From positions 1 to 17,777 of the forward strand of contig JALUTT010000016.1 of NCBI GenBank assembly GCA_027021705.1: a DNA stretch of 17,777 nucleotides, given 5' to 3'. The notes below the pieces were generated by a model. That model was not told the origin of the DNA, ran no database searches, and saw only the letters and a list, made by a program, of their open reading frames with translations. Positions within the stretch are counted from its first letter, which is position 1; each line of letters starts with the position of its first letter. Below, in pieces: positions 1,259-17,604 of the stretch. The position numbers were made by a program, and so were the translations under genes. Source of the DNA: Anaerolineae bacterium (GTDB lineage Bacteria > Chloroflexota > Anaerolineae > S140-20).

Positions 1259-1334
1259 AAGGTTCCGAGGCTTGAGAGGGCAAGCGGGGATGTCCGGCAG
1301 GGGCATCCCCGCCCGCCTGTCCGTTGGACACGAT

Positions 1335-3356
1335 ATGATGCTCACCGGACGCAAAGGTCTGAAGCAACCCCTTGCCGAGCTGACCCTGCTGGGTGCGCTA
1401 CTGCTCCTGGCTGCTTGGCTGCGCCTCCACCGCCTGGATCAGGTGGAGTTCCTATGGGACCAGGCCGAGATCTCCAAATGGGCGCTGCGGATGGCCCGAG
1501 AGGGGGAGATCGCCTGGGTTGGCCCTCCCTCCTCTACGGGCGTCTACTCCTTCCTGGGGACCGTCTGGCTGATGGCGATCCCCTACGCCCTCTCCCCCAG
1601 CCCCATCCTCGCCACCGGCTTCGTCGCCTTCCTCAACGTTGTCGCCGTGCTGGGCTGCTACCTCCTGGCCCGCCGTTGGTTTGGCCGTCAGGCCGCGCTG
1701 GCCTCCACCCTTCTCTTCGCCGTCGCCCCCTGGGCAGTGATCTACTCGCGCAAAATCTGGCAGGTGGAGCTTCTGATCCCCTTCACCCTCCTCTACGCCG
1801 CCACCGGCTGGTGGGCCTTCGTGAAGGGGAAGGGCTGGGCAGTGCCGGCCCACGCCCTGGCCCTCGCCTGGCTGATCCAGGTCCATCTCTCGGCCATCGC
1901 CCTCGTCCCGCTGACCGGCCTCTGGACGCTCCTCTTCTGGCGGCGGCTGGCCTGGCGGTGGGTGCCCCCGGCGATCCTCCTGGCCGCCCTCCTCTTCGTT
2001 CCCTACCTCCTCTTCGACGCCCGCCACCAGTGGTTCAGCATCCGGCGCTTTCTGGAGGTGACGCAACATCCGGCTACTCTGGATGCCAGCGCCCTCCACG
2101 CCGTCTGGATCAACACGACCGGGCTGGACCTCCACTGGCTGACCGGCCCGGACCGCTACCCGGAGTTCACCGCCGCCACGCCCAACCTGCGCAGCCTCTT
2201 CGTCGTAGAAGGGGGCCTGGCCTTCGGCGCTGCCCTCCTGGCCCTGCTCCGGGCGGCCCGCCAGGCCCGCCGAGGGCTCGACGGGGAGACGGCAGCCGCC
2301 CTGATGGCGGCCACCTGGCTGGTGATGCCCATCCTCTTCTACACCCGTCACGTCGTGCCCATCGCGCCCCACTACGTCACGACCATCTTCCCCGCCCCCT
2401 ACCTCCTCATCGGCTGGCTGGTCCAGCGGGTGGCCTCCTGGGACCACCCCAGGGCACGGTCCTACGCCCTCGCCCTGGGGCTGCTGGTCGGGGCCATCGC
2501 CCTGGCCCAGCTCCGCGAGATCACCGGCCTGCTCCGCTTCGTCACCACCCACGATACGCTGCGGGGGTACGACACCCCCTTGGGCTACGACGTCCGGGCG
2601 GCCCAAACAGCCCTCCGACTGGGCCGGGCGATGGACGACGCCGAGGTGATCCTGCTCTCCGAAGGGGATGAGCCCCGTTCCTACGAGATGCCGGCCACCG
2701 CCGACGTGCTCCTCTACGGCTACCCCCACCGAGCCGTGGACATCCGCACCGCCCTCGTGCTGCCCGCCGGTCCGGCGGTCTACTGGGCCACTTACGCGAT
2801 GACGCCCGGCGAAGCCCTCCTCGCCACCTTCGCCCAGGAGGTCCCGGAGGCCCGCCTTCCCCTCCGTGAGGGCAAGCGGACCTACCGCTTCTACCGCTGG
2901 CCCGGCGGCTCCCCCACCATCCCCGACTTGCAACGGCTGCCCCGGCCCCTGCGCTGGGCCAACGGCGCCCAACTGATCGGCTACCGGATCGCCGGTGACC
3001 TCCGCCCCGGCGGCACCCTCCGCTGGACACTGGTCTGGCAGCCCGCCCGCACCCCCGATGAGGACGTCTACTACCACTGGTTCAACCACCTGCTGGACGA
3101 CCAGGGAACCTTTCGAGGGCAGCGGGATGGCCCCAGCCTGCTCCCCGCCTACTGGCGGGCCGGAGACACCATCCTGAACTGGTTCGAGATCGCCATCCCC
3201 GCCGACGCCCCTCCCGGCGACTACCGGATGCGGGTGGGGATGTACACCTATCCGGCCCTGGAGAACGTCCCGCTCCTGGACGAGGCCGGCCGACCGGCCG
3301 GGGAGTGGGCCGAGATCGGCCCCATCCCCATCGGACGAGGAAGCGCTGGCCGATGA
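1335..3356 (+). CDS. GT-C fold membrane glycosyltransferase (ArnT/PMT-like) with C-terminal beta-sandwich domain
   Basis: N-terminal TM with LRLHRLD..FLWDQAE acidic loop, about 10 further hydrophobic segments, LARRWFGRQAAL and APWAVIYSRKIW motifs. The C-terminal domain reads QLIGY..PGGTLRWTLVWQ..WFNHLLD..QRDG..PPGDYRMRVGMY. Start is uncertain (ATG 1335/1338 chosen over TTG 1272). Confidence 0.8.
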   Translation: MMLTGRKGLKQPLAELTLLGALLLLAAWLRLHRLDQVEFLWDQAEISKWALRMAREGEIAWVGPPSSTGVYSFLGTVWLMAIPYALSPSPILATGFVAFLNVVAVLGCYLLARRWFGRQAALASTLLFAVAPWAVIYSRKIWQVELLIPFTLLYAATGWWAFVKGKGWAVPAHALALAWLIQVHLSAIALVPLTGLWTLLFWRRLAWRWVPPAILLAALLFVPYLLFDARHQWFSIRRFLEVTQHPATLDASALHAVWINTTGLDLHWLTGPDRYPEFTAATPNLRSLFVVEGGLAFGAALLALLRAARQARRGLDGETAAALMAATWLVMPILFYTRHVVPIAPHYVTTIFPAPYLLIGWLVQRVASWDHPRARSYALALGLLVGAIALAQLREITGLLRFVTTHDTLRGYDTPLGYDVRAAQTALRLGRAMDDAEVILLSEGDEPRSYEMPATADVLLYGYPHRAVDIRTALVLPAGPAVYWATYAMTPGEALLATFAQEVPEARLPLREGKRTYRFYRWPGGSPTIPDLQRLPRPLRWANGAQLIGYRIAGDLRPGGTLRWTLVWQPARTPDEDVYYHWFNHLLDDQGTFRGQRDGPSLLPAYWRAGDTILNWFEIAIPADAPPGDYRMRVGMYTYPALENVPLLDEAGRPAGEWAEIGPIPIGRGSAGR

Positions 3357-5404
3357 GGGCGATGACGAAGCGCCGAGAATGGACTGCCCTGTTGCTCCTC
3401 TTCCTCCTGGCGGCCGGGCTCCGCTGGTGGGCCCCGTTGGCCGTCCCTCCCGGCCTGGAGATGGACGAGCTGATCGAGGCCCAGATCGCGGAGCAGGTGC
3501 TCCAGGGGGATTGGCGGCCCTTCTACGAGGCCGGTCAGGGGCGGGAAGGGCTCTACCACTACTGGCTGGCCGGCTGGCTGGCGATCCTGGGCCGGCGTCT
3601 CTTCACGCTGCGGGTCGCCTCCTCGATGCTGAGCCTGCTGGGGCTGGCCGCCGGCTACATCCTGACCCGCCGCCTCTTCGGCCCGGCGGTGGCGCTGGTC
3701 GCCCTGGCGGGCGGGGCAGCCTCCTTCTGGACCCTCTTCGCCGCCCGCTCCGGGCTGCGCTCCACCAGCCTCCCCCCGTTGGCCGCGCTGGCCGGCTACT
3801 TCTTCTGGCGGGGGCTCGCCCCTCGCGCCGTCCGCAGGGCCGGGGGGCGCTCCCGGCTGCTCCTGGCCGCTGCCGGCCTCTTCCTGGGCCTCACCTTTTA
3901 CGCCTACACGGCGGCCCGGGTGCTGCCGGCCGTCTTCCTCCTCTTCGCCCTCTACCTGGGGGCCTTCCACCGGGATTGGCTGGCCGGGCGGATGCAGGCG
4001 TTGTTCCTGGGGGGGCTCGTCGCCCTGCTGGTGATGCTCCCCCTGCTGCGCTACCTGCAAACCCATCCCGAGGCCGACCAGTTCGACTTCCTCGACTTCA
4101 ACCGCCCGCTGGCGGCGCTGGAGCAGGGCAATCCGGAGCCGGCGCTGCGGACCACGCTGGCGACCCTGGGGATGTTCACCTTCCGGGGGGATCCCCTCAT
4201 CTTCGACAACGTGCCCGGCCGGCCCGTCTTCGACCCCCTCAACGGCCTGCTCTTCCTGGCCGGCGTGGGGATCGCCCTGGCCCGCCTCCGCCGTCCCGCC
4301 TATGCCTTCGCCCTCCTCTGGCTCCTCGTCAGCCTGGTGCCGGGGATGCTCAGCCAGCCGGCGCCCAACTTCTACCGGACCGTCGGCGCTCAGGTCGTCG
4401 CCTTCGCCTTCCCCGGCCTGGCTCTCGTGGAGGTCGTCCGCCGCTGGCGACGCCGCCGGTCAGGATGGGCAGGGCGGCCGGCCCTGGTCGGCGGGGCGGC
4501 CCTCCTGCTGGCGGTCCACCTGGTCGGCAACGGGCGGGCCTACTTCGCCACCTGGCCCCGGGTGGAAGGGATCCGCTTCTTCTGGCAGAGTGGGCTGGCC
4601 GAGGCGGCCCGCTATCTGGACCGCACGCCCGACGACGGCCCCGTCGTCCTCTGCACCGTCCTCACCTACGAGCACGATCCCTGGTGGCGGCCCGCCTGGC
4701 AGAGCATGCCCTACCTCCTCCGCCGCACCGACCTGGCGATCCGCTACCACGACTGCCGGACGGCGCTGGTGCTCCCGGCGGGCCGGCCCGTGCGCTACCT
4801 CTTCCCCGAGGCCCCCGACCCCGCCGCCCTGGTCTCCGACGGGCTCTGGGGGCCGGTGCTGACGGCCGCGACGCTGGTCCCCGGGGCCTTCCCCTCGGGC
4901 CAGGGGGCGCTGCTCCGGCTGGACGGACCGCTCCCGGCGGTGGGGCCGACCTCGGGGGCCGTCCGGTGGGCGCCCGAGGCGGGGGGCGGCCCGGCCTCGC
5001 TGCCGGTCGCCTTCGGCCAGAGCCTGCGCCTCCTGGGCTACCGGCGCGCCCCGGCCCACCCCCGCCCCGGCGACCGACTGCGCCTGGTCACCGCCTGGGA
5101 GGTGCAGGCACCGCCGCCGCCACGCCTGGCCCTCTTCACCCACCTCCTCGCCGACCCCCAGACGCTGGTGGCCCAGCAGGACGGCCTGCCGCTGACCTCT
5201 CACAGCCTGCGTCCGGGAGATCGGTTCCTGGTGCTCCACGATCAGGTCCAACTTCCGGCGGAACTGCCCGCCGGCACCTACCTCCTCTCCATCGGCCTCT
5301 ACCGGAGCGACACGATGGAGCGGCTGCCCCTCCACGAGGGGGCCCGGCCACGAGGCGACCGCCTCTTCCTGGAGCCCGTCGTCGTCACCGAGGAGTCGCG
5401 ATGA
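3353..5404 (+). CDS. GT-C fold membrane glycosyltransferase (ArnT/PMT, GT39/GT83-like) with C-terminal beta-sandwich domain
   Basis: ATG 3353 overlaps the upstream stop (ATGA). Motifs LRWW..VPPGLEMDE (DE acidic pair), GREGLYHY, LTRRLFG and GLTFYAYTAAR, with many TM segments. C-terminal FGQSLRLLGY..FTHLL..QQDG..GTYLLSIGLY domain. Confidence 0.85.
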   Translation: MRAMTKRREWTALLLLFLLAAGLRWWAPLAVPPGLEMDELIEAQIAEQVLQGDWRPFYEAGQGREGLYHYWLAGWLAILGRRLFTLRVASSMLSLLGLAAGYILTRRLFGPAVALVALAGGAASFWTLFAARSGLRSTSLPPLAALAGYFFWRGLAPRAVRRAGGRSRLLLAAAGLFLGLTFYAYTAARVLPAVFLLFALYLGAFHRDWLAGRMQALFLGGLVALLVMLPLLRYLQTHPEADQFDFLDFNRPLAALEQGNPEPALRTTLATLGMFTFRGDPLIFDNVPGRPVFDPLNGLLFLAGVGIALARLRRPAYAFALLWLLVSLVPGMLSQPAPNFYRTVGAQVVAFAFPGLALVEVVRRWRRRRSGWAGRPALVGGAALLLAVHLVGNGRAYFATWPRVEGIRFFWQSGLAEAARYLDRTPDDGPVVLCTVLTYEHDPWWRPAWQSMPYLLRRTDLAIRYHDCRTALVLPAGRPVRYLFPEAPDPAALVSDGLWGPVLTAATLVPGAFPSGQGALLRLDGPLPAVGPTSGAVRWAPEAGGGPASLPVAFGQSLRLLGYRRAPAHPRPGDRLRLVTAWEVQAPPPPRLALFTHLLADPQTLVAQQDGLPLTSHSLRPGDRFLVLHDQVQLPAELPAGTYLLSIGLYRSDTMERLPLHEGARPRGDRLFLEPVVVTEESR

Positions 5405-5438
5405 GTCGCTGAGTCGAAGGATCCCTGAGTTCTAAGCG

Positions 5439-7670
5439 ATGCCGATACGCCGTGATCTTCCCGAACGATCCATACCCTGGCCCATCGCCGGCATCCTGCT
5501 GGCCTTCGTCCTCCTGGCCGGCGCGGTCAGCGTGGTGAACCCCCTCTTCGAGTCCACCGACGAGATCCGCCACTACCGCTACATCCGCCGTCTGGTCGTC
5601 GAGCACCGGCTGCCCGTCCAGGGGGCCGAGCGGGTCCGCTCTCAGAGCCACCACCCGCCCCTCTACTACCTGCTCAGCGCCCTCGCCAGCGGTTGGGTGC
5701 CCTCGCCCCACACGCCCGAGTACCAGCAGCCCATCAACCCCTTCTGGGGCTACCGGCTCTGGGAGGTGAGCGTGGACAACAAGCTCCAGTACTGGCACGG
5801 CCTGGCGGAGCGGTTCCCCTTTCGGGAGGGCTACCTGGCGGCGGTGATCCCCCGCTGGGTCAACGTCCTGCTGGGGGCCGTGACGGTCTGGCTGACCTAC
5901 CGGCTGGGGCGGCGGGTGTGGCGGGAGCACCCCGCCCTGGCCTGGGGGGCGGCGGCCCTGGTCGCCTTCAACCCCCAGTTCCTCTACCTGAGCGGGGCGA
6001 TGAACAACGACATCATCGCGGCGGCCACGGGCACGGCGGTGTTGCTGGTGAGCCTGGAGGTGGCCCAGGAGGGGTTGCAGCGGGACCGGCTGCTCCGGCT
6101 GGGGCTGGCCTACGGGCTGGCGCTCCTGGCCAAGTTCCACCTGGTCACCCTAGGGGGCATCATCGCCCTGGCCCTCGCCCTGGGGGTGGTCGGGTGGTCC
6201 GGTGGTCCGGTGGTCCGGTGGTCGGGTGGCCGGGCGTTGGGGCGCTGGCTGGGAGGGATGGGGGTCGTGCTGGGGGTGGCCGCCCTCCTCGCCGGATGGT
6301 GGTTCCTGCGCAACTGGTGGCTCTACGGCGACCCCACCGGCCTCAACAAGGTCAACGAGCTCTGGTTGGGCCGCCCGGCCGGGGGCAACTGGTGGGCCCT
6401 CTGGCAGGGACTGCCCTACCTCTGGAGCAGCCTCTGGGGGCGCTTCGGCTACGGCCAGATCCCCCTGCCCCAGCCCATCTACAGCGGCCTGCTCGCCTTC
6501 GTCCTCCTGGCGCTGGGGGGATACCTACGCCCCCGCCGCGCCGAATCCCCAACGCCGATCCTGGCCCTGGGCCTGCTCCTGACCACCGTCCTCGCCTTCA
6601 CCGCCGTCGTCTTCTACTACATCCTGATCCAGCCGGCGGGGCCGATGGGGCGCTTTCTCTTCCCCGCCCTGCCCGCCTTCGCCGTGCTCCTGGTGGGGGG
6701 GCTGCACCGCTGGCTGCGGCGGCCGGTCTGGACCGCCGGAGGGGTGGCCGTGGGGATGGGGCTCCTAGCCCTGGTGGCCCTGGGGGGGTACCTGGCCCCG
6801 GCCGTCCGCTACCCGCCTCCGGCCCCCTCCCCGCCCCCCGGTCGCCCGCTGGAGGTCCGCTTCGGCGACGTGGCCCGGCTGCTCGCCGTCGAGGTCCACC
6901 CCACCACCCTCCGCCCCGGCGAGCCCCTCTTCGTCACCGTCACCTGGGAGCCGCTGCGCCGGACCGAGCGCCCCTACACCGTCTACGTCCACCTGATAGA
7001 CGAGGCCGACGTGCTCATCGCCCAGCGGGATACCTGGCCGGGGCTGGGTCGGGCCCCGACGACGGGCTGGCAGCCGGGCCGTCCCTTCGTGGACACCTAT
7101 CGGGTGGACCTCCCCGAGACGGCCTACGCGCCGGACCGGGCCGCCGTGCGGGTGGGGCTCTACGAGGCGACCTCGGGCCGGCTCCCCGCCTTCGGCTCCG
7201 ACGGGGAGCCCCTGGGGGACGGCGTGGCCGTGGGGACGGTGACGGTGGAGCCCCGCCCCGGCCCCTGGCCCAACCCCCTGGAGGCCAACTTCGGGGACGA
7301 GATCGCCCTGGTGGGTTACCGGCTGGAGCCGCGCACGCTGCGGGCCGGTGAGACCTTCACGCTGACCCTCTACTGGAGGCCGCTGAAGGAGCCTCGGTAC
7401 GACTACCTGGTCTTCGCCCAGGTGATTGACCCGGCCTGGCAGGTGTGGGGCAGCCGGGATGGGGCCGGGCCGGGCTGGACGCCGGGGCAGGTCGTCGAGG
7501 ATGTGCGTCGGATCACGCTGCGGCCCGATGCGCCGCCGGGCAGCTACCCCATCCAGGTGGGGCTCTTCCACGGTGAGACGGGCCGCCTCCCCGTCCTGGC
7601 CCCCGACGGCCACCACAAGGACGAGCGGGTGCTGTTGGGGCCGGTTCGGGTGAGGGGGGAGGGGGAGTGA
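5439..7670 (+). CDS. GT-C fold membrane glycosyltransferase-like protein (DUF2142/PMT-like) with two C-terminal beta-sandwich repeats
   Basis: Motifs PLFESTDEIRHYRY, HHPPLYY, FNPQFLYLSGAMNND, GLALLAK, WWFLRNWWLYGDPTG, SLWGRFG and GRFLFPA. Two C-terminal repeats start at FGDVARLL and FGDEIALVGY. Confidence 0.8.
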   Translation: MPIRRDLPERSIPWPIAGILLAFVLLAGAVSVVNPLFESTDEIRHYRYIRRLVVEHRLPVQGAERVRSQSHHPPLYYLLSALASGWVPSPHTPEYQQPINPFWGYRLWEVSVDNKLQYWHGLAERFPFREGYLAAVIPRWVNVLLGAVTVWLTYRLGRRVWREHPALAWGAAALVAFNPQFLYLSGAMNNDIIAAATGTAVLLVSLEVAQEGLQRDRLLRLGLAYGLALLAKFHLVTLGGIIALALALGVVGWSGGPVVRWSGGRALGRWLGGMGVVLGVAALLAGWWFLRNWWLYGDPTGLNKVNELWLGRPAGGNWWALWQGLPYLWSSLWGRFGYGQIPLPQPIYSGLLAFVLLALGGYLRPRRAESPTPILALGLLLTTVLAFTAVVFYYILIQPAGPMGRFLFPALPAFAVLLVGGLHRWLRRPVWTAGGVAVGMGLLALVALGGYLAPAVRYPPPAPSPPPGRPLEVRFGDVARLLAVEVHPTTLRPGEPLFVTVTWEPLRRTERPYTVYVHLIDEADVLIAQRDTWPGLGRAPTTGWQPGRPFVDTYRVDLPETAYAPDRAAVRVGLYEATSGRLPAFGSDGEPLGDGVAVGTVTVEPRPGPWPNPLEANFGDEIALVGYRLEPRTLRAGETFTLTLYWRPLKEPRYDYLVFAQVIDPAWQVWGSRDGAGPGWTPGQVVEDVRRITLRPDAPPGSYPIQVGLFHGETGRLPVLAPDGHHKDERVLLGPVRVRGEGE
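6185..6232 (+). repeat. Intragenic octamer tandem repeat (GGTGGYCS)x6
   Basis: ggtggtcg ggtggtcc ggtggtcc ggtggtcc ggtggtcg ggtggccg; 48 bp, which keeps the reading frame. Confidence 0.9.
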
Positions 7671-7690
7671 GGTGGTGAGGGGGTGAGGCA

Positions 7691-8698
7691 ATGAGGGGAC
7701 GGGGCGATGAGGCAACGAGGGGGGGAGGGGGCGCGAGGCGCGTCATCGGCCGGCTGGGCCGGCGCCGGGGGGCCATCTTCCGCCTGCTGGTCAGCCTGGG
7801 GGTGCTGACCTTCGTGCTGACGACCATCGGCCTGGAGCGGATCGGGCAGGTCCTGCTGACCGCCTCGCCCGGTCCCATCCTCCTGGCCTTCCTGCTCTTC
7901 GTCGCCGGCATCGTGGTGCGGGCGGCCCGCTGGCGGGTCCTGCTCCGCGCCCTGGGGGTCCACGTGCCCTTCGGACGGCTGGTCCACCTTTACTTCGCCG
8001 GCACCTTCTTCAACGCCTTCCTGCCCTCCGGCTTCGGCGGGGATGTCGTCCGTGTCCTGGAGATCGCCCAGGAAGCCCGCGCGGCGGCGGCCTTGGGCAC
8101 CGTGGTGGTGGACCGGATGACGGGGCTGATGGTCCTCTTCGCGATGGCCCTGCTGGCCCTCCCCTTCAGCCGTCGGTTGCTGCCCTGGGAGGTCTGGCTG
8201 GCCATCGGGGGGATGGCGGCGGCCGGGCTGGTCGCCGGTGGACTGGTCCTGCACGGGCGCTGGCTGCGCCGGCTGGGAGACCGGCTGCCCGGCCCCTTCT
8301 CCCTGACCGGCAGCGGGGCGCTGGCCCGGGCCTACGATGCCGTCACCGCCTGTGGCTGGCGGGCCGTGGGGCAGGCGCTGGCCCTCTCCCTCGTCTTCAA
8401 CACCCTCCTCATCCTGGTCAACTACCTGACCGCCCTGGCGGTGGGGATGCGTCTCAGCCTCGTCTACTTCCTGCTCTTCGTGCCCGTCTTCTCCGTGATG
8501 CTGATCCTCCCCGTCTCCATCGGCGGGCTAGGGGTGCGGGAGGGGATGGCGGTGCTCCTCTTCACCCAGGTGGGCGTGGACCGGGCGGTGGCCGTCGCCG
8601 CCTCCCTGGCCGTCTACGCCGTCTCCCGGGCGACGGGGCTCCTGGGCGGGCTGCTCTACTTGGTCCAGAGCCTCCGGGCCCTGCGCTCTCCCCGATAG
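7691..8698 (+). CDS. Lysylphosphatidylglycerol synthase TM-region / UPF0104 flippase-like membrane protein
   Basis: Motifs RAARWRVLL, GTFFNAFLPSGFGGDVVR, VVVDRMTGL and LPVSIGGLGVREG are typical of this family, with about 8 TM segments. The exact start is uncertain. Confidence 0.88.
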   Translation: MRGRGDEATRGGGGARRVIGRLGRRRGAIFRLLVSLGVLTFVLTTIGLERIGQVLLTASPGPILLAFLLFVAGIVVRAARWRVLLRALGVHVPFGRLVHLYFAGTFFNAFLPSGFGGDVVRVLEIAQEARAAAALGTVVVDRMTGLMVLFAMALLALPFSRRLLPWEVWLAIGGMAAAGLVAGGLVLHGRWLRRLGDRLPGPFSLTGSGALARAYDAVTACGWRAVGQALALSLVFNTLLILVNYLTALAVGMRLSLVYFLLFVPVFSVMLILPVSIGGLGVREGMAVLLFTQVGVDRAVAVAASLAVYAVSRATGLLGGLLYLVQSLRALRSPR

Positions 8699-8773
8699 TC
8701 CGCAGCAACGGGCAGATGGAAGACGCGATTCATACGCAAGCTGCGATAAAGGGGAGTCACCACGAGCCCCGCC

Positions 8774-8862
8774 GGTGATTACCCATATCTTTGGAGATTT
8801 TGTGAGAAATTCGTGGACGGCTTGCTACGGACCACTCTCTCGCTCCCTTGTGGGTAATCACC
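8774..8862. mobile_element. MITE-like 89-bp element with perfect 12-bp terminal inverted repeats and flanking direct repeat (copy 2)
   Basis: GGTGATTACCCA (8774-8785) pairs with TGGGTAATCACC (8851-8862). Flanks ACGAGCCCCGCC (8762-8773) and ACGAGCCCCGCT (8863-8874) match 11/12. The interior is more AT-rich than the flanking genes. Confidence 0.6.
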
Positions 8863-8920
8863 ACGAGCCCCGCTCTTGCGTCGGAGCCGGGATGATGTTA
8901 CAATTCTTGGCAGCGCCGGC

Positions 8921-9175
8921 CGCAGTCCGCAGTCCGCTGTTTGGTCGGGTGGTCGCTTGGTCGCTTGGTCCGCAGTCCGCGGTCCGCAGTCCACAGTCCT
9001 CAGTCCGCTGCTAGGCCGCTAGATCGCTAGGTCGCCAGGCCGCTTGATCGGCGGTCGGCGGTCAGCCGTCGGCGGTCGTTGATCGGCGGTCGTATCCGGC
9101 CTCGGTCCGCCGCTAGGTCGCTAGGCCGCCAGGCCGCTTGCCCTCTGCCCCTTGCTCCTTGCCCCTTGTCCCTTG
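8921..9175. repeat. Patchwork of short (7-8 nt) tandem repeats
   Basis: Consecutive blocks of (CGCAGTC)n, (TTGGTCGC)n, (CTAGGYCG)n, (GGCGGTC)n and (CCCCTTG)n. Confidence 0.85.
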
Positions 9176-9360
9176 CGGCGGGGGTGGTGGGGCTGGTGCC
9201 CTTCGTGCCGCTGATGCGAGGGGCGGACGAGGGGGTGATCCGGCGGGGGGTGGAGGTGCTGCGGGAGCGGGGGGTGGGGGAGGAGGTCGAGGCGGCGCTG
9301 GCCTTGTTTGCCAGCTTCGTGATGGAGCCGGAGCAAGTGCGGCAGATTGTGAGGTGGGAT

Positions 9361-9681
9361 ATGGCGGTTCTGAAGGAATCACCCTGGTACAAGCGAATCC
9401 TGGAGGAGGGCCTCCAGCAGGGCCTCCAACAGGGGCTTCAGCAGGGCCTCCAGCAAGGGCTCCGGCAGGGGCTGCTGGAGGGCCGGCGGGAGGACATTCT
9501 GCACCTGCTGCGGGTGCGGTTTGACCCGACGGGGCCGGCGCTGGAGCCCATCGCCGAGAAGCTGGCCGAGATCGAGGAGGCCGGCCTGCTCCAGGACCTG
9601 CTGGTGGAGGCGATGCGGACGGAGAGCCTGGATACCTTCCAGCGGAGGCTATCGCTGCTGTCAGAGAACTCCTCGGAGTAG
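9361..9681 (+). CDS. Putative RpnS-like small protein (106 aa) from an internal start
   Basis: Shine-Dalgarno-like GAGGTG at 9351-9356 lies before in-frame ATG 9361. The product contains the GLQQ repeats and a helical tail. Confidence 0.5.
   Translation: MAVLKESPWYKRILEEGLQQGLQQGLQQGLQQGLRQGLLEGRREDILHLLRVRFDPTGPALEPIAEKLAEIEEAGLLQDLLVEAMRTESLDTFQRRLSLLSENSSE
9409..9480 (+). repeat. 12-bp coding repeat encoding (GLQQ)x4-GLRQ-GLLE
   Basis: ggcctccagcag ggcctccaacag gggcttcagcag ggcctccagcaa gggctccggcag gggctgctggag. Confidence 0.9.
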
Positions 9682-9727
9682 TCTTCTTTCTTAAACCGAC
9701 CCATCGTGGCCGCATCGCCTTATCGCC

Positions 9728-12040
9728 TTGCCACCCTACACCTTCAACCGCGTGTCGCAGAAATTGAGGAAACACAGCCCCATCCCGGTCCTGCTGGCCC
9801 TTTTCGTCCTGCTCCCCTTCTGGGACCTGCTCTGGACACCTGAGACCCAGGTTGTGGCCGGCAACGACCTGCTCTTTATGTTCCTCCCCTGGTGGCGCTT
9901 CGCCCAGGAAAGCCTGCGCCAGGGGGAGCTTCCCCTGTGGAACCCCTACCTCTTCTCCGGGGTGCCTTTCCTGGCCAACCCCCAACCGGCCCTCTTCTAC
10001 CCGCCCGTCTGGCTCATCGGTCTCCTGCCGCTCACCCGGGCGGCGGGCTTGCTCTTCTTCCTGCACCTCTGGCTGGCCGGCCTGGGCACCTATGGCTGGC
10101 TTCGCGCCGAGGGCGCGGACCGATGGGGGAGCCTCTTCGGCGCGGTCGCCTTCGCCTTCAACGGCTACTTCGCCGTGCGCATCTACGGCGGCCACTTGGG
10201 CGTGGTGATGACCCAGGCCTGGCTCCCCGTCGTGCTCTGGGCCGCCCGCCGGGCCATCGAGGGGAGATCGCTGCGCCGGGCGGTGCTGGGTGGCCTCCCC
10301 GTCGCCCTCTCCCTGCTGGCCGGCCACACCGCCTCTTTCCTGTACGTGGGGCTGGTCCTGGCCGCCTACGCCCTCTACCTGGCCTGGCGGGCTTGGCGGC
10401 AGGCCCCGACCCCTGCCTCGGGCTGGGCCTCGCTCCGGACCGGCCTCCTCCCCCTGCTCCTGACCGGCACGATGGTCCTGACCGGCCTGGGCCTGGCGGC
10501 GGTCCAACTGCTCCCCACCTGGGAACTGGTCCGCCACTCCGTCCGCCAGGAGGCCTCCTACGCCTTCGCCGCCCAGTACGCCTGGCCGCCGGGCTACCTG
10601 CTGACGCTGCTCGTCCCCAACTTCTTCGGCGAGCCGGTTCGGGCCGGCTACTGGGGCGTGGAGATCTACACCGAGTTCATCTTCTACACCGGCCTGCTGC
10701 CCCTCCTGCTGGCCTTGGCCTTGGGGAGCCGGCTGCGCCACCGGTTGGTCCCCTTCCTGCTCCTGCTGGCGGGGGCCGGGCTGCTGCTGGCGATGGGGCC
10801 GGCCACCATCCTGCACCGCCTGGCTTACGACTTCCTGCCCCTCTTCCGCTCAACGCGGGCGCCGGCCCGGGCCGGCTTCCTCTTCGCCTTCGCCGTCGCT
10901 GCCCTGAGCGGGCTGGCCCTCACCCGGATGCGCCAGAGGCCCGACGAAGCCCGGTCGGCCCTTCGGGGATGGGTTCAGGGACCGCTGCCCTGGCTGGTCG
11001 GCACCCTGGCCACCCTCGTCGCCCTGACCGGGTTCCTCCTCTTCGGCCTGCAGCGGGACAGCAACGCGCAGGTGGGCCGGCTCTGGCACGTCGCCAACTA
11101 CGTGGCCCTCTTCCTGCTCTTCTTCCTCCTGGCGGTGGGGCTGGTACGGGCCTGGCTGGCGGGACGGGTGACGGGCCGGCAGGGGGCCACCCTCGCCATC
11201 GGCCTGGTCCTGCTGGACCTGTGGAGCTTCGGACGCCCCCTGATCCAGACCGTCCCGGCAACGGAGAGCGGCTACTGGCGCACCGTCGCCCAGGTGGTGG
11301 GCGAGGCCGGGAAGACAGGACGTGTGCTCCCTTGGGGGCTGACCATCTTCGAGCACAACCAGGGGATGGTTCTGGGGCTGGAGAGCGTCTTCGGCTACGA
11401 CCCGCTGGAACTGGAGCGGTACTACCGCTTCACCACCGCCGTCTCGGACCCCCGGGCGCGGGCCTACGACCTCTTGGGAGCCCGCTACCTGGTGACCGGC
11501 CAGGAGATGACCTTTCCCGACGAGGTGGATGCCCCTCGGCTGCTCGCCCACCGGGGGGATCTCTGGGTCTACGAGCGCCCGACCGCCTTCCCGCCGGCCT
11601 GGCTGGTCCACCGGGCGGAGGTGCTGAGCGCCGAGGAGGTGCTGGCGCGGCTCAACGACCCGGCCTTCGACCCCCGGCAGGTGGCCCTGCTGGAGGCCGA
11701 TCCCCCCTGCACGCCGACCGGTGCCGAGGGGCCGGCCCCGGAGGGGGAAGCGGTGCGCTTCTCCCGGCAGGGGAACAATCGCCTCGAGGTTGAGGTCGAG
11801 GCGGCCTCGGAGGGCCTACTGGTGCTGGGCGAGGTCTTTTACCCCGGCTGGCGGGCGACGGTGGATGGGAAGCCAGCCCCCGTCCTGCGGGCCGACTACG
11901 CCCTGCGGGCCGTCTGTGTGCCGGCCGGAACCCACCGGATCACCCTCACCTTTGCCCCCCTCTCCTTCCGCCTCGGTGCCGGGATCAGCCTGCTCTCCCT
12001 CCTGCTCCTCGTCGTCGCGCTGTTCTGGGGGAGGCGGTGA
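9728..12040 (+). CDS. YfhO-family membrane protein (GT-C type glycosyltransferase)
   Basis: N-terminal GELPLWNPYLFSGVPFLANPQPALFYP, then GGHL, LLAGH, GLAAVQLLP and FRSTRAPAR. C-terminal GLLVLGEVFYPGWRATVDG..VLRADYALRAVCVPAGTHRI plus a terminal TM helix. The start may be GTG 9752 or TTG 9764. Confidence 0.85.
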   Translation: MPPYTFNRVSQKLRKHSPIPVLLALFVLLPFWDLLWTPETQVVAGNDLLFMFLPWWRFAQESLRQGELPLWNPYLFSGVPFLANPQPALFYPPVWLIGLLPLTRAAGLLFFLHLWLAGLGTYGWLRAEGADRWGSLFGAVAFAFNGYFAVRIYGGHLGVVMTQAWLPVVLWAARRAIEGRSLRRAVLGGLPVALSLLAGHTASFLYVGLVLAAYALYLAWRAWRQAPTPASGWASLRTGLLPLLLTGTMVLTGLGLAAVQLLPTWELVRHSVRQEASYAFAAQYAWPPGYLLTLLVPNFFGEPVRAGYWGVEIYTEFIFYTGLLPLLLALALGSRLRHRLVPFLLLLAGAGLLLAMGPATILHRLAYDFLPLFRSTRAPARAGFLFAFAVAALSGLALTRMRQRPDEARSALRGWVQGPLPWLVGTLATLVALTGFLLFGLQRDSNAQVGRLWHVANYVALFLLFFLLAVGLVRAWLAGRVTGRQGATLAIGLVLLDLWSFGRPLIQTVPATESGYWRTVAQVVGEAGKTGRVLPWGLTIFEHNQGMVLGLESVFGYDPLELERYYRFTTAVSDPRARAYDLLGARYLVTGQEMTFPDEVDAPRLLAHRGDLWVYERPTAFPPAWLVHRAEVLSAEEVLARLNDPAFDPRQVALLEADPPCTPTGAEGPAPEGEAVRFSRQGNNRLEVEVEAASEGLLVLGEVFYPGWRATVDGKPAPVLRADYALRAVCVPAGTHRITLTFAPLSFRLGAGISLLSLLLLVVALFWGRR

Positions 12041-12206: not shown

Positions 12207-12277
12207 GGGGTGTTGCGGGGGCGTCCGATTGGTATGCACATAATGTTCTCCCTTGAGTGTCGCAAGGAGGTGCTGTA

Positions 12278-12544
12278 ATGAGGGATACGACCCGGGTCAC
12301 GGTGGTGCTTCCCGTCGCGCTCTGGGAAGAGGTGAAGGAAATGGTCCCTGCCGGCCAGCGCTCCCGGCTGGTCGCCGAGGCCCTGGAGGCGGAAATCCGC
12401 CGGCGGAAGCGTCTGGAGCAACTGGAGCGTCTACGGCGGTTCCAGGACTACCTCCTAGAAAAGTATGGGGAGATGCCCAGCAGCGTGGAGGATATCCGTC
12501 AGATGCGGGAGGAACGCGATGCCGAGATCACTGGTCTGCGTTGA
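12278..12544 (+). CDS. vapB: Ribbon-helix-helix type antitoxin (VapB-like)
   Basis: RBS AAGGAGG at 12264-12270 before ATG 12278. TRVTVVLP..LWEEVKEMVPAGQRSRLVAEAL fits an RHH pattern, the tail IRQMREERD is typical, and the gene overlaps the downstream PIN gene. Confidence 0.75.
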   Translation: MRDTTRVTVVLPVALWEEVKEMVPAGQRSRLVAEALEAEIRRRKRLEQLERLRRFQDYLLEKYGEMPSSVEDIRQMREERDAEITGLR

Positions 12545-12965
12545 TGCTAACATCGTCGTTGCCCTGGTCACGGTCGAACGGCTTAGCCGCCGAGCGCTCT
12601 CCCTCTGGCAGGAATGGTCCCAGGGAACCTGGCAGCCGATCGCACCGCTCCTCCTACGCTACGAAGTGACTTCTGCTCTACACCGCAAAGTCGTGCGGGG
12701 GATGATGGACGCGCAAGATGCCTATCAGGCGTTGCAAGAAGCGTTCGCTCTGGACATCCAGTATTTCGACCCGCCGGGGCTCTCGGAGCGGGCCTTCGAG
12801 CTGGCCGCCCGTTTCCAGCGGCCGGCCGCTTACGACGCCCACTACCTGGCCCTGGCCGAGCACCTGGACTGTGCCTTCTGGACGGCCGACGAGCGCCTCT
12901 ACAACGCCGTCCGCGCCGAGTTCCCCCTCATCCGCTGGTTGGGGGACTACCAACCCGATGACTGA
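12519..12965 (+). CDS. vapC: PIN-domain ribonuclease toxin (VapC-like)
   Basis: VCVDANIVV, YEVTSAL, AYDAHYLALAE and FWTADERL supply the conserved acidic PIN residues. ATG 12519 follows a GGAGGA RBS and overlaps the antitoxin gene. Confidence 0.9.
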   Translation: MPRSLVCVDANIVVALVTVERLSRRALSLWQEWSQGTWQPIAPLLLRYEVTSALHRKVVRGMMDAQDAYQALQEAFALDIQYFDPPGLSERAFELAARFQRPAAYDAHYLALAEHLDCAFWTADERLYNAVRAEFPLIRWLGDYQPDD

Positions 12966-13248: not shown

Positions 13249-13572
13249 GTGTGGGAAGGAAGGGACGATAAGCGGGTCAAGCTGCTGATGCAATGGGACA
13301 TCCGTCCCGGCTATGAGGCTGCTTACTTCGAGTTCGTCGTGCGGGAGTTCGCCCCAGGGCTGATGCGGCTGGGACTGCAGCCGACGGACGTCTGGTACAC
13401 GGTCTACGGGGACCATCCCCAGATTCTGGCCGGCAGCATCGCCGAGGACCTGCCGACGATGCGGCGCATCCTGCAGAGCCCGGAGTGGGAGGCCCTGCTG
13501 GAGCGGCTCTTCCAATACGTGCAGAACTTCCAGAAGAAGATCGTCCCCGCCCGCGAGCGATTCCAGCTTTAA
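13249..13572 (+). CDS. Small hypothetical protein (possible NIPSNAP/dimeric alpha-beta barrel-like fold)
   Basis: Purine-rich RBS region GAGGAGAAGGAG just upstream and GC3-rich codons. VKLLMQWDIRPGYEAAYFEFVVREFAPGL looks like a real globular protein; the fold is an inference. Confidence 0.7.
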   Translation: MWEGRDDKRVKLLMQWDIRPGYEAAYFEFVVREFAPGLMRLGLQPTDVWYTVYGDHPQILAGSIAEDLPTMRRILQSPEWEALLERLFQYVQNFQKKIVPARERFQL

Positions 13573-13615
13573 CCTCGAGAGGATGGCTCGACGAGCCGAC
13601 GAAAGGAGTGAGAAT

Positions 13616-14983
13616 TTGCGCAAGTGGATCTGGCTTGGTATAGGATTGCTGGCAGCCCTGCTGCTGGCCGCATGCACCGGTGCCGGGACGGCGGAGAAGG
13701 CCACCGCTCCACCGGCCACCGAAGTTGCCGCTTCACCGACGGAAGGCACCCTTCCCTCCCCTACGCCGACCGAGGTCGCTGTCACACCGACCGAAGCCGC
13801 TGCCGAGGCCACACCGGCTGAGCCTCCTGTCTCGGCCGCAGACCTCCCGCTGGGCACAGGTCAGGATGCCTGTCGCCTCTTCCAGGGTGTCCAAGTGCCC
13901 CCTGCCTCCACGGAACCCCCGCCCTGGCAGATCCCCGAAGTGAGCGAGGAGGACTGGGTCCGGGGGGCCAAAGACCCGATCCTGACCATCGTCGAGTACG
14001 GCGATTTCCAGTGACCGTACTGCGCCTCTTTGGCACCAACTCTGGATGAGTTGGTTCAGAAACACGGTGACGAAATCCAGTTGGTCTACCGCCACTTCCC
14101 CCTCAACTCCATCCACGATAAGGCCCAGATCGCTGCCGAAGCTACCGAAGCCGCCGGTGCGCAGGGGGCTTTCTGGGAGATGCATGATCTCATCTTCGCC
14201 AACCAGCAAATGATGAACCAGCAGGACTTGGAGACCTACCGGGAAACGCTGGTGGGCTTTGCCGAGCAGCTAGGGCTGGACGTGGATCGCTTCCGCAAAG
14301 AGCTGGTGGACGGAACCTACAAGGACAAGGTGGAACAGGCGACCCAGGCGGCGATGGAATTGGGCCTGGGTGGTACTCCCGCCATCTTCATCAACGGGCA
14401 GTTCTGGCAGGGTCCCCGTGACCTCTACATCTTCGAGGCGATCCTGGAACTGGAGAAGCTGCGCAGCCGCCAGTACGCCGAAGCGCCCCCGGTGAAGATT
14501 GACCCCGAGAAGCAGTACGTGGCGACCTTCTACACCGATAAGGGGGAGATCGTCGCCCAGCTCTACGCCAAGCAGGCCCCCATCGCCGTCAACAGCTTCA
14601 TCTTCCTGGCCTGCCAGGGCTGGTTCGATGGCGTCACCTTCCACCGGGTGCTCCCCGGCTTCGTCGCCCAGACGGGCGACCCCACCGGGACCGGCTTCGG
14701 TGGTCCGGGCTACCGCTTTGGGAACGAGATAGACCCCCAGCTCACCTTCGATGGGCCGGGGGTCCTGGCGATGGCCAACGCCGGCCGTCCCAACACCAAC
14801 GGCAGTCAGTTCTTCTTCACCTACGACGCCCTGCCCGATCTGAACGGCAACTACACCATCTTCGGGCGGGTGATCCAGGGGATGGATGTGCTGGAGTCGC
14901 TGACGCCCCGAGATCCCCAGCAGGACCCCTCGGCCCCGCCAGGGGACCGGATCCAGTCCATCACGGTGGAGGAGTTGGAGTAG
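13616..14983 (+). CDS. Selenocysteine-containing DsbA-like (thioredoxin-fold, UxxC) / cyclophilin-type PPIase fusion lipoprotein, 455 aa, Sec at residue 133
   Basis: ORFs 13583..14014 and 14030..14983 share one frame and are separated only by TGA 14012-14014, giving IVEYGDFQ-U-PYCASLAP. The neighbouring paralog aligns as LIEYADFQ-C-LAC. A SECIS-like hairpin follows. AAGGAG (13603-13608) favours a TTG 13616 start, with signal peptide and lipobox LAAC. The DsbA part has YRHFPL and GGTPAIFING; the cyclophilin part has FHRVLPGFVAQTGD, AMANAG..TNGSQFF and YTIFG. Confidence 0.85.
14029..14060 (+). promoter_or_regulatory. Bacterial SECIS-like hairpin
   Basis: Perfect 8-bp stem ACCAACTC (14035-14042) / GAGTTGGT (14048-14055) with a 5-nt loop TGGAT. 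The loop has G at position 2 and starts 28 nt after the UGA. The stem extends by TTTGG/TCAGA with one bulged C. Confidence 0.75.
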
Positions 14984-14987
14984 CTCG

Positions 14988-16280
14988 GTGGGGCGGAGAG
15001 GTGCCCGGACGGGCCTGCTCATCCTGGTCCTGATCCTGGTCACAGGCTGGCTCCTCTGGCAGTGGTCTGTCCGGGCAAGCTTTCCCGCCCCATCGTTGCC
15101 TTCACCCTCGCCGACGCCGACGCTGCGTTCCAGCGCGACGCCCGTTCCCTCACCGACCCCTACCGCCAGTCCCGTCGCGCCCGTTGCGCTGCAGGACCCC
15201 CCTCCTCCCTCCCCGACACCTACGCCCACCCCAGGCCCTCCCCCCCTCTCCTCGTCCGACTGGGTGCGGGGGCCGGAGGAGGCAAAGGTCACGCTGATCG
15301 AGTACGCCGACTTCCAGTGCCTGGCCTGCGCGACGCTGGCCGGCTGGCTGACGCGCCTGTCCGATGAAGTGCCGGGGGGCGTGCGCTTGGTCTACCGCCA
15401 CTATCCCCTCCCTAAGCTCCACGACCGGGCCGTGGTAGCTGCTGAGGTCGCCGAAGCAGCGGGTGCCCAAGGCCGCTTCTGGGCGATGCACGACCTCCTA
15501 TACTGGCGTCAGGACGAGTGGACAAAGGTGCCCGAAGAGAACCTGCTCGACCTGTGGGTCGGTTACGCCCGGGAGCTGGGTCTGGACACGGACCGCTTCC
15601 GACGGGATCTGGAGAGCCGGCGCTATCGGCGTCGCGTCCTGGATGCCTACCAGGCTGCCGCGTCCATCCCCATGGCCGGCGTCCCCACCCTCTTCATCAA
15701 CGGCGTGCGCTATCGGGGGCCCCTGAACCGACAATCGCTGTCGGCGATGCTCCAGGTCGCCGCCCAGCGCCCTCTCTACCCCGCCCCTCCACCGATGACA
15801 CTGGACCTGACCCACACCTACACGGCCACGCTGGTCACCCGCCACGGCGAGATCGTCATCCGGCTGCACCCGGAGTGGGCCCCCCAGGCGGTGAACAGCT
15901 TCGTCTTCCTGGCCCGTCAAGGCTGGTACGATGGCCTCCCCTTCCACACCGTCCTGCCGGGCCGGCTGGCGGTCACCGGGGACCCCAGTGGGACCGGGTT
16001 GGGAGGGCCGGGATACTACCTGCCCGACGAGATCATCGCTGCACTGCGCTTCAACCGACCTGGGCGGGTCGCCCTGGCCAACGAGGGTTGGCCCAACACC
16101 GGCGGCAGTCAGTTCTTCATCACCGCGCAACCGGCTCCTGAGTTGGATGGCCGCTACACCATCTTCGGTCAGGTCGTGTCGGGCCTGGAGGTGCTGGATG
16201 CCCTCACCCCCAGCCGACCAGGCCCTGAGGGAGTCAGAGATGCGGATCTCCTGGAACGGGTTATCATCGAGGAGCGATAA
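14988..16280 (+). CDS. Membrane-anchored DsbA-like (CxxC) / cyclophilin-like fusion, Cys paralog of the upstream selenoprotein
   Basis: N-terminal TM helix, Pro/Thr/Ser linker, DWVRGP..IEYADFQCLAC, YRHYPL and GVPTLFING, then a cyclophilin-like domain (AVNSFVFLARQGWYDG, NTGGSQFF, YTIFG). It starts 4 nt after the upstream stop. Confidence 0.88.
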   Translation: MGRRGARTGLLILVLILVTGWLLWQWSVRASFPAPSLPSPSPTPTLRSSATPVPSPTPTASPVAPVALQDPPPPSPTPTPTPGPPPLSSSDWVRGPEEAKVTLIEYADFQCLACATLAGWLTRLSDEVPGGVRLVYRHYPLPKLHDRAVVAAEVAEAAGAQGRFWAMHDLLYWRQDEWTKVPEENLLDLWVGYARELGLDTDRFRRDLESRRYRRRVLDAYQAAASIPMAGVPTLFINGVRYRGPLNRQSLSAMLQVAAQRPLYPAPPPMTLDLTHTYTATLVTRHGEIVIRLHPEWAPQAVNSFVFLARQGWYDGLPFHTVLPGRLAVTGDPSGTGLGGPGYYLPDEIIAALRFNRPGRVALANEGWPNTGGSQFFITAQPAPELDGRYTIFGQVVSGLEVLDALTPSRPGPEGVRDADLLERVIIEER

Positions 16281-16284
16281 GCCT

Positions 16285-17604
16285 ATGGACACCTCCCCGC
16301 CGACGCTTCCCCAAGGGCAACCTGTCGAAGGCATAGGGGGGCAGCCGGTCTCCTCCCCACCTCCGCCCTCCCAGGCGCGCCAAGCCGGACTGGTCCTGCT
16401 GGTCCTCAGCGGATGTGGCGTGATGCTCTGCTTGGTTGGAACGGGGCTTCTGGTCCTCTTCGTGGGCCTGGCGGAGGGTGCCGGGGAGGCGGATTCCTGG
16501 TTCATCGCCGTGGGCCTCCTGGCTCTGGGGCTGGGCCTGGCCCTGCCCCTCACCTGGCAGGGCGGTGCGGCGCTGCTGAGACGCCCCTCGGCTCCTTTCA
16601 CTCCCCGACGCGCCTGGCCTTTGGCCCTCCTCTTCTTCGTCGCCTTGGCGGGCGGTCAGCTTGTGCTGATCCTGAAGTTGATGCCCGGGGTGGTGATGCC
16701 CTTCTTCCACCTCATCGCGACGGTAGTCCCGCCACTGCTCGTCGTCGCGCTGGTAGCCCGCCACCTGCACCGCAGGGCCGGCTTGCGCTTCAGCCGACGG
16801 GAGGTGATCTTCCACCTGGCAGCCGGAGCGCTGGGGGCCACCTTTCCCGCCCTGATCCTGGAGGGGATCGGTGCCCTCTTCCTGGTCCTCTTCCTCGCTG
16901 TGGGCATCCTCGTCCTGCCGGGCGGCGAAGCTTACCTGGAGGCCCTCCGACAACAGTTGGAGATGGTCGGCCAGTTACCCGACGCTGACCGGGCAATGGC
17001 TCTGCTCCGGCGGCCGGAAGCCATCCTCTTCCTGTTGCTCCTCTTCGCCGTCATCACCCCTCTGGTCGAGGAGTTCCTCAAGCCCTGGGCGGCTGTGCTC
17101 TTGAGCGGCCGCCGCCGTCCGCCTCCAGGACGGGTCTTCTTCTGGGGGGTTGTCGCGGGAGCAGGCTTCGCCATCGCCGAGGGCTTCTTCAACGTCGCCC
17201 TCTCCGTGGGGGTCTGGACGGCCACGGCCCTGCTGCGGGCGGTGACGGCCACGCTCCACAGCTTGGGGACGGGGGTGGTCGCGCTGGGGTGGGGCCGTTT
17301 CTGGACCGAGCGGCGAGCCGGTCCGCTGCTGGGAGGCTACCTGCTGGCCTTGGTCCTCCACGCCCTCTGGAACGGGGCCATCGTGGGGCTGCAGGTGGTC
17401 GGAGCCTTCCTGGCCTGGTCGGAAGGCGGTCAGGGGGCGGAGGCGCCGACCCCCTACCTGCCCGCGCTGATCCTCCTGGCAGTGCTGGCGATGAGCCTGT
17501 TGGGGATGCTGCTGGTGGCGGTGCCGGGCCTCTTAGCTGCCGTCACCCGGCGGGTGGCCGTCCAGGAGGCCTCCCGAGAGGCCGGCTCCTTGACCGACGG
17601 CTGA
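16285..17604 (+). CDS. PrsW-family intramembrane glutamic/metalloprotease
   Basis: Multi-TM protein with PLVEEFLK, GAGFAIAEG, ATLHS and LHALWN motifs. ATG 16285 lies 4 nt after the upstream stop with GAGGAG before it; the longer 15931 start is spurious. Confidence 0.85.
   Translation: MDTSPPTLPQGQPVEGIGGQPVSSPPPPSQARQAGLVLLVLSGCGVMLCLVGTGLLVLFVGLAEGAGEADSWFIAVGLLALGLGLALPLTWQGGAALLRRPSAPFTPRRAWPLALLFFVALAGGQLVLILKLMPGVVMPFFHLIATVVPPLLVVALVARHLHRRAGLRFSRREVIFHLAAGALGATFPALILEGIGALFLVLFLAVGILVLPGGEAYLEALRQQLEMVGQLPDADRAMALLRRPEAILFLLLLFAVITPLVEEFLKPWAAVLLSGRRRPPPGRVFFWGVVAGAGFAIAEGFFNVALSVGVWTATALLRAVTATLHSLGTGVVALGWGRFWTERRAGPLLGGYLLALVLHALWNGAIVGLQVVGAFLAWSEGGQGAEAPTPYLPALILLAVLAMSLLGMLLVAVPGLLAAVTRRVAVQEASREAGSLTDG

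Follow-up and report, generated by a model that had tools for sequence, protein, structure and literature searches.

The DNA analysed here is a 17,777-nucleotide (nt) stretch from an Anaerolineae bacterium of the Chloroflexota (contig JALUTT010000016.1, assembly GCA_027021705.1), which we refer to as the window. On its forward strand, positions 13583-14983 form one reading frame with a sole interruption, a UGA at 14012, situated exactly where relatives of the encoded protein have the first Cys of the CxxC motif in a DsbA-like domain. Downstream of this UGA is a hairpin at 14029-14060 (core 14035-14055) with the geometry of a bacterial selenocysteine insertion sequence (SECIS), built from codons that the organism otherwise avoids, and the UGA and hairpins of this kind recur together in many genomes. 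We propose, with a probability of about 0.85, that this hairpin is the bacterial SECIS of a selenoprotein gene. The features concerned, with the source of each in brackets, are as follows (bp, base pairs):

13583-14983 (+): predicted selenoprotein gene of 466 codons with one in-frame UGA (translation with TGA as U, Pfam, NCBIfam)
13673-13675 (+): Cys31 of a lipobox-like L-A-A-C, putative lipidation site (translation)
14012-14014 (+): in-frame UGA, putative selenocysteine U144 of a U-P-Y-C redox motif (aligns with Cys in the paralog and homologs)
14021-14023 (+): TGC, resolving Cys147 of UxxC (read from the sequence)
14024-14034 (+): small 3-bp hairpin GCC/GGC with loop UCUUU (minimum free energy structures; weak)
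14029-14033 (+): 5' side of the lower stem, five pairs, two of them G-U, with a bulged C at 14034 (RNAfold)
14035-14042 (+): 5' arm of the 8-bp upper stem of the putative SECIS, ACCAACTC (sequence, RNAfold)
14043-14047 (+): apical loop UGGAU, its second and third bases both G, a putative contact for SelB (sequence, RNAfold)
14048-14055 (+): 3' arm of the upper stem, GAGTTGGT (sequence, RNAfold)
14056-14060 (+): 3' side of the lower stem (RNAfold)
14988-16280 (+): tandem paralog, DsbA-like plus cyclophilin, with C-L-A-C at the homologous position (Pfam, alignment)

When TGA is translated as U, a single read-through position is found over 13583-14983 (+); the start codon may lie a few codons further downstream. 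From the N-terminus, the product has a lipobox-bearing signal peptide and a linker, followed by a thioredoxin domain of the DsbA-like kind (residues 122-289) and then a cyclophilin-type peptidyl-prolyl isomerase (PPIase) domain (residues 315-461). Pfam assigns the 466-residue protein to PF01323 (1.1e-21, 78 bits against a cutoff of 25.6, residues 135-285), to PF13462 (3.4e-20) and to the cyclophilin-type PPIase family PF00160 (3.1e-40, 138.5 bits against a gathering cutoff of 21.7, residues 315-461), and cyclophilins in the PDB match it down to 2.8e-33. The N-terminus has a hydrophobic stretch followed by L-A-A-C, which resembles a lipobox. The residues E-Y-G-D-F-Q precede the U-P-Y-C motif, and the combination of a PF01323 domain with U144-P-Y-C147, in which the predicted selenocysteine (Sec) occupies the first CxxC position, is that of the UxxC form of DsbA-like selenoproteins. 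UGA serves as the ordinary stop codon of five of the ten candidate open reading frames (ORFs) in the window, and there is therefore no global reassignment of this codon.

The upper stem of the hairpin (14035-14042 with 14048-14055) consists of eight Watson-Crick pairs and no mismatch, beginning 20 nt after the UGA, so that exactly 28 nt (14015-14042) separate the UGA from the first loop base. RNAfold gives -14.1 kcal/mol for 14029-14060 (z = -4.0) and -11.1 kcal/mol for the core hairpin only (z = -4.4); neither value is equalled by any of 200 dinucleotide shuffles, and both z-scores are those of a segment picked post hoc. The minimum free energy (MFE) structures also contain the small hairpin at 14024-14034, which would form in place of the main hairpin's lower-stem extension. 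The bacterial SECIS model set out in the Figure 2 legend of PMC13188914 has a loop of 3-9 nt, an upper stem of 4-16 bp and an MFE of at most -7.5 kcal/mol, with at least one G in the first two loop bases and a distance of 16-37 nt from the UGA. The window hairpin agrees with it on all four criteria (loop 5 nt, stem 8 bp, spacing 28 nt, G at loop position 2), at -11.1 to -14.1 kcal/mol.

The codons that make up this hairpin are unusual for the genome in which they are found. Taking the ten likely genes of the window as a codon usage reference, TCT, TTG, GCA, CCA, ACT, TTG and GTT each account for just 3-6% of the codons of their own amino acid, and such rare codons (at most 6% of the amino acid) fill seven of the ten positions across 14027-14056. 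The GC content at third codon positions (GC3) is 0.80 for the gene compared with 3/8 in the hairpin codons, a value that is equally low in 1.5% of the gene's 8-codon windows. When the segment was recoded synonymously (n = 5000, window codon usage), only 0.22% of the recodings gave a model-fitting hairpin of equal stability. The unusual codon choice underlies a specific hairpin, not general stability, and the use of rare codons points to selection on the RNA. An earlier note on this DNA, made from the letters alone, had described the perfect 8-bp stem with its UGGAU loop 28 nt past the UGA, which holds letter by letter, and five extra pairs with a bulged C, which RNAfold of 14029-14060 reproduces; its remark that A/T-rich codons stand here in a GC3-rich gene is borne out by the figures above, and its wording of the SECIS model (short loop, early G, roughly 16-37 nt) agrees with the legend of PMC13188914.

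The protein has 5687 relatives at E <= 0.001 among 8000 scored, named as Anaerolineae or Chloroflexi proteins. Motifs were counted in the 120 homologs listed: 101 have D-[FY]-x-C-x-x-C with the Cys aligning with the UGA, 12 are long cyclophilin proteins without the motif, two have a degenerate motif and two differ in the residue before F-Q-C-P-Y-C. The other three (P0002, at 99% identity, P0003 and P0116) start directly after the motif, as expected of gene calls that restart past a UGA. P0003 (488 aa) and P0116 (494 aa) have two cyclophilin domains in series, and here too the call probably restarts after a UGA. A query with the N-terminal 143 residues returned the complementary pieces, four proteins (P0122-P0125) with 95, 85, 73 and 37% identity that all terminate in ...D-F-Q; the position of the stop is therefore old and the residues preceding it are conserved. 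The lipobox-like L-A-A-C is present in these fragments as well.

We also scanned genome contigs with a degenerate pattern for E-[YF]-x-D-[FY]-[QE]-UGA-P-x-C, for which, by our estimate from the information content of the pattern, about ten chance matches are expected. The scan yielded at least 123 stretches, and the analysed set comprises at least 125 UGA sites in at least 122 loci. At 122 of the 125 listed sites the frame is open for at least 141 codons past the UGA, or to the end of the available DNA. At the remaining three (L015, L031 and L056) it closes 88-93 codons past the UGA, inside the DsbA domain, and these may be decaying copies or assembly errors. Among the listed loci, about 150 codons past the UGA correspond to single-domain DsbA-like proteins and 302-330 codons to 17 DsbA-cyclophilin fusions; L028 and L047b, taken for fusions by their length, were rejected as such, because NCBIfam shows them to be multi-DsbA proteins without a cyclophilin. 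The metagenome-assembled genomes (MAGs) that hold the listed sites are labelled Chloroflexota, Acidobacteriota, Nitrospirota, Rubrobacteraceae, Rokubacteria, Myxococcota, Desulfobacterota and others. Four short contigs (L040, L044, L080 and L110) are binned as Anderseniella, Klebsiella or Enterobacteriaceae, labels that look out of place and may reflect mis-binning. One Chloroflexi MAG (L063:9494-10474, +) encodes a UGA-bearing DsbA-like protein with an N-terminal DnaJ J-domain (TIGR02349, 4.2e-19), an unexpected architecture. Tandems of two UGA-bearing DsbA-like domains or genes within about 700 nt occur in L008, L047 and L051 and in the pairs L089/L090 and L096/L097; these would be Sec/Sec pairs, unlike the Sec/Cys pair of the window.

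These observations bear on whether the UGA is simply a true stop, the locus being a pseudogene, or two genes of which the downstream one begins at an internal TTG, and the hairpin having arisen by chance. Public gene calls do split the gene, P0002 starting inside the hairpin and P0122-P0124 ending at the UGA, and hairpins as stable as this one follow 3.8% of positions as background. However, relatives with identities as low as 73% and 37% retain the stop, with conserved DsbA residues on its flanks; the product of a separate downstream gene would have no signal peptide, and its DsbA domain would be missing the first strand and the active site; the frame continues past the UGA at 122 of the 125 listed sites elsewhere; and the rare codons point to RNA-level selection. 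We therefore regard a true stop as highly improbable.

Similar structures accompany the UGA elsewhere in the family. A strict test was coded from the criteria of PMC13188914, requiring a perfect stem and scoring the bare hairpin, and was applied to the listed UGA sites and to 1208 in-frame control positions inside the same genes. It was passed by 74 of the 125 sites and by 87 of the 1208 controls. With the loop rule dropped and any perfect hairpin at E <= -4 accepted, 115 of the 125 sites and 524 of the 1208 controls had a hairpin, and a G was present in the first two loop bases of 106 of the 115 site hairpins compared with 295 of the 524 control hairpins. The listed sites share descent, so they do not amount to independent trials.

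The site hairpins fall into recurrent classes defined by spacing and loop: 19 nt with GUC (30 sites), 21 nt with a CGUGA-like loop, 23 nt with CGUGNU, 28 nt with CG[G/U]NN and 38 nt with GGU, and compensatory changes are seen within classes. Examples are GUC in L008, L013 and L033, CGUGUU in L001 and L030, and GGU in L021 and L039. The DsbA-like UxxC family thus has at least five distinct, internally covarying classes of putative SECIS, placed 17-38 nt from the UGA and mostly following clade and phylum.

The window hairpin has the spacing and loop length of the 28-nt class. When the loop must have 5 nt and the spacing must be exactly 28 nt, 14 of the 125 listed sites and 1 of the 1208 controls have a stem of 6 bp or more; if the stem may be as short as 4 bp, 15 listed sites qualify, 14 of which are labelled Chloroflexota. 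In an ungapped 16-row alignment (A1) the G at loop position 2 is invariant, and RNAalifold recovers a 6-bp stem in which every pair shows compensatory changes. The rows of A1 were picked for pairing at the window's register, which biases the pairing percentage, and the control rate of 1/1208 is the fair figure. The window keeps six of six pairs, five of them differing on both sides. It is identical to the other 15 loci of this Chloroflexota class in spacing, loop length and the G at loop position 2, but differs in its host protein, those of the class being single-domain and distantly related, and the class itself was found by searching at the window's own register. With five of the six pairs differing and the host proteins so distant, common descent of these hairpins is not shown.

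The tandem paralog at 14988-16280 offers a comparison within the same locus. It starts 5 nt after the stop codon of the UGA gene, shares 47% identity with its product over 341 aa, and has a Cys codon beginning at 15318 at the corresponding site. No SECIS-like hairpin accompanies this Cys site, the best model-fitting structure there having -3.9 kcal/mol and the fold a z-score of +1.0. A fitting hairpin is absent from all three Cys paralog sites (window, L028 and L061; best -3.9 in the window, and -2.6 and none at the other two), a number too small for statistics, and in-gene positions therefore served as the controls. Such Sec/Cys neighbour pairs are rare: in the loci examined, the only ones besides the window are L028, where both lie within one multi-DsbA ORF, and L061.

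The hairpin might instead have some other role in the RNA, for example in making the ribosome pause while the protein folds or is exported, in the stability of the mRNA or in attenuation, and it is generally known that rare codons and local structure are able to slow translation. The Cys paralog, however, has no comparable structure at the same place, hairpins with an early loop G accompany the UGA across the family, and no terminator-like or promoter-like site was found within 13300-15100, which speaks against a terminator or promoter explanation. We give a different RNA role as little credence as a true stop.

Several results weigh against a SECIS at this position. The commonest loop pattern of the SECIS model has its first and last bases paired (PMC13188914 says "mostly", so that the pairing is optional), and the loop ends U14043 and U14047 of the window are unpaired. 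The whole stretch 14012-14080 folds with a z-score of just -1.96, and the MFE of the 66 nt past the UGA is unremarkable, 27% of synonymous recodings being equally low. Run over both strands of the window (35,374 positions), the strict test finds a model-fitting hairpin at <= -7.5 kcal/mol after 14.1% of positions and one at <= -11.1 kcal/mol after 3.8%; among the 319 TGA triplets, 35 and 10 are followed by one at these respective thresholds. Under a looser SECIS scoring (flanks, single-hairpin filter), 97 of the 125 real sites passed, as did 258 of the 621 controls, and a different, odd hairpin was chosen for the window; this scoring was dropped as not robust. Neither sel genes nor a tRNA-Sec were found in the 17.8-kb window, and no tRNA-Sec in 60 of the 122 related loci, each scanned whole.

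Conservation of the stem was sought in the 17 UGA-bearing DsbA-cyclophilin orthologs, whose DsbA-domain segments share 41-56% identity with that of the window protein (BLAST). The columns of the window stem are paired in 35.4% of cells compared with 34.4% after shuffling (168 of 500 shuffles as high), and RNAalifold finds no common structure among these orthologs, so there is no covariation evidence for the particular stem of the window. The earlier note had named non-conservation among UGA orthologs as a refutation of the SECIS, and, read literally, non-conservation is what these 17 distant sequences display. They carry different hairpin classes of their own, and a conservation test therefore calls for closer relatives. 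As for the same note's view that the hairpin supports recoding independently, the fit to the model, the rare codons and the enrichment across the family uphold it; taken by itself, the hairpin is modest evidence, since the SECIS model is permissive and acts as no more than a filter on geometry, with a background of 3.8-14%.

The Rfam database has no match anywhere in the window at gathering scores, and at E <= 10 the surroundings of the UGA give chance-level hits to 6C, WT1-AS_5 and sR28 and nothing SECIS-like. Rfam identifies no SECIS family at the UGAs of 20 related loci either, and its silence here is therefore uninformative.

These counterpoints leave room for a UGA that encodes Sec with the help of another structure, either the hairpin at 14024-14034 or a longer-range fold, the 8-bp hairpin being incidental. 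Fitting hairpins are frequent by chance in this GC-rich window (the 14.1% of positions noted above), MFE folds of longer stretches contain other pairings, and the exact stem is absent from distant orthologs. On the other side, the 8-bp stem is the one that is made of rare codons and is matched by 0.22% of recodings, a class that recurs in Chloroflexota shares its spacing and loop size, and the hairpin at 14024-14034 has just three pairs and a loop without G. We consider it quite improbable that the SECIS is a structure other than the 8-bp hairpin.

For the SECIS that we favour, decoding would proceed in the established manner. As the UGA enters the A site of the ribosome, the upper stem, lying 20 nt downstream, would still be folded outside the mRNA channel, where SelB with GTP and Sec-tRNA(Sec) could bind the apical loop, through the two Gs at 14044-14045, and the upper stem. 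SelB would then deliver selenocysteine in competition with release factor 2. The predicted product would be exported and probably anchored to a lipid. It would join a thiol-disulfide oxidoreductase, whose active site is Sec-x-x-Cys, to a peptidyl-prolyl isomerase and act as a catalyst of protein folding outside the cytoplasm.

The amino acid inserted could conceivably be Cys. The hairpin would then recruit a SelB-like factor, and the UGA would be read by a selC* tRNA-Cys(UCA), which resembles tRNA-Sec and belongs to a type described for some anaerobes. According to PMC5389517, selC* tRNA-Cys(UCA) inserts Cys at the opal Sec codon, and in some Deltaproteobacteria selC* is found together with another copy of selB; no feature of the window separates Sec from Cys. 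The hosts that this paper names, however, are Firmicutes, Thermodesulfobacteria, Nitrospirae and Proteobacteria and not Chloroflexi, to which it ascribes a form of tRNA-Sec, and Chloroflexota are reported as users of Sec in PMC1794560 and PMC13326102. Decoding as Cys thus appears very improbable, and all four of the alternatives to a SECIS that directs Sec insertion, taken jointly, are unlikely.

The experimentally characterised reference for such elements is the Escherichia coli fdhF SECIS, a hairpin in the coding sequence past the UGA whose apical part binds SelB; its loop is nearer to the UGA than that of the window, and its stem has a bulged U. The window element also resembles the bSECISearch model, the one summarised in PMC13188914, in being a stem-loop in the coding region just past the UGA, with a loop G at position 2 followed by another G. 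DsbA-like UxxC proteins are a listed family of prokaryotic selenoproteins in PMC13188914. In PMC1794560 (2006), the 'DsbA-like protein form 1' (PF01323) was reported from Anaeromyxobacter, Desulfovibrio and Desulfotomaculum, Chloroflexi then already being counted among Sec users, and the main text of BSepDB gives 46-49 selenoproteins for Dehalococcoidia. The window protein is like DsbA-like UxxC selenoproteins in its PF01323 domain, in the predicted replacement of the first CxxC Cys by Sec and in its abundant Cys homologs, and unlike them in its fusion to a C-terminal cyclophilin PPIase and in carrying a lipobox.

We found no paper that names a DsbA-cyclophilin fusion as a selenoprotein, in a search of articles; supplementary tables might list one. 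The best NCBIfam match of the window protein is NF041057, 'Rcas_1661 family thioredoxin-like (seleno)lipoprotein' (residues 22-289), a Sec-or-Cys lipoprotein family named for a Chloroflexota locus tag; a literature search for Rcas_1661 likewise returned no paper. The window protein shares with this family its lipobox-like L-A-A-C, but its score of 102.6 bits is below the curated cutoff of 190, which makes it a relative and not a member, and the NF041057 model lacks the cyclophilin part. Only two of 28 related proteins tested, both multi-domain, exceed the cutoff. Both the mechanism and DsbA-like UxxC selenoproteins are thus already known, and the window most likely adds another example. What is added to the known picture is modest: the DsbA-cyclophilin architecture as a predicted selenoprotein, the tandem arrangement of Sec and Cys paralogs, and the presence of several covarying SECIS classes in one family.

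The two genes for exported foldases are preceded by a series of large genes that encode membrane proteins (1272-12040, +). Weak to moderate matches to the PMT_2 glycosyltransferase family are found at 1272-3356, 3305-5404 and 5439-7670 (+), followed by an LPG_synthase_TM gene at 7691-8698 and a YfhO-like gene at 9728-12040 (+), a composition that suggests a cluster for envelope glycosylation or lipid modification. A PIN-domain protein is encoded at 12465-12965 (+; PF01850, 3.3e-08), possibly a VapBC-type toxin; the ORF that overlaps it upstream (12253-12669) matches no family, and its GC3 pattern is the wrong one. The ORFs 3-1148 (+) and 15931-17604 (+) have coding-like GC3 values of 0.85 and 0.82 and no Pfam or NCBIfam match. 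Since the latter overlaps the 3' end of the paralog by about 350 nt, its true start is probably later.

The exchange of Sec and Cys within the family was followed in two trees, one made with FastTree from 119 rows and one with IQ-TREE in quick mode from 62 rows (18 Sec rows and 44 of 97 Cys rows), the latter leaving out L028, L047b, P0003, P0116 and the window paralog. Both trees show the Sec forms dispersed across the Cys forms. The FastTree topology needs 11 Sec/Cys changes and the IQ-TREE topology 9, of which well-supported branches force at least 6 and at least 7, respectively. The window's gene stands alone in both trees without a resolved placement, and neither tree separates gains from losses. 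Frequent interchange of Sec and Cys agrees with the published picture (PMC1794560). It is conceivable, though we hold it to be somewhat doubtful, that the window SECIS is a lineage-specific invention. As part of the same tentative proposal, a single protein family would employ five or more unrelated designs of hairpin for its Sec-UGA, their loops placed 17-38 nt from that codon; Sec and Cys would have been exchanged at least seven times within just the DsbA-cyclophilin branch; and the window's hairpin would have been fashioned from seven rare codons, with a stem sequence common to no other.

The most immediate consequence concerns annotation. Public gene calls cut the UGA gene into an N-terminal piece of 132-150 aa and a C-terminal piece of 310 aa, a mis-annotation that hides the predicted active-site selenocysteine together with the whole exported oxidoreductase-isomerase, and with at least 125 UGA sites of this motif across MAGs the omission is widespread. 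If the window SECIS did arise within its own lineage, the family would constitute a natural series for studying the birth of SECIS elements in coding sequence and the tolerance of SelB for their variety. The product of the window gene would then be an undescribed exported selenoprotein foldase, combining disulfide chemistry with prolyl isomerisation.

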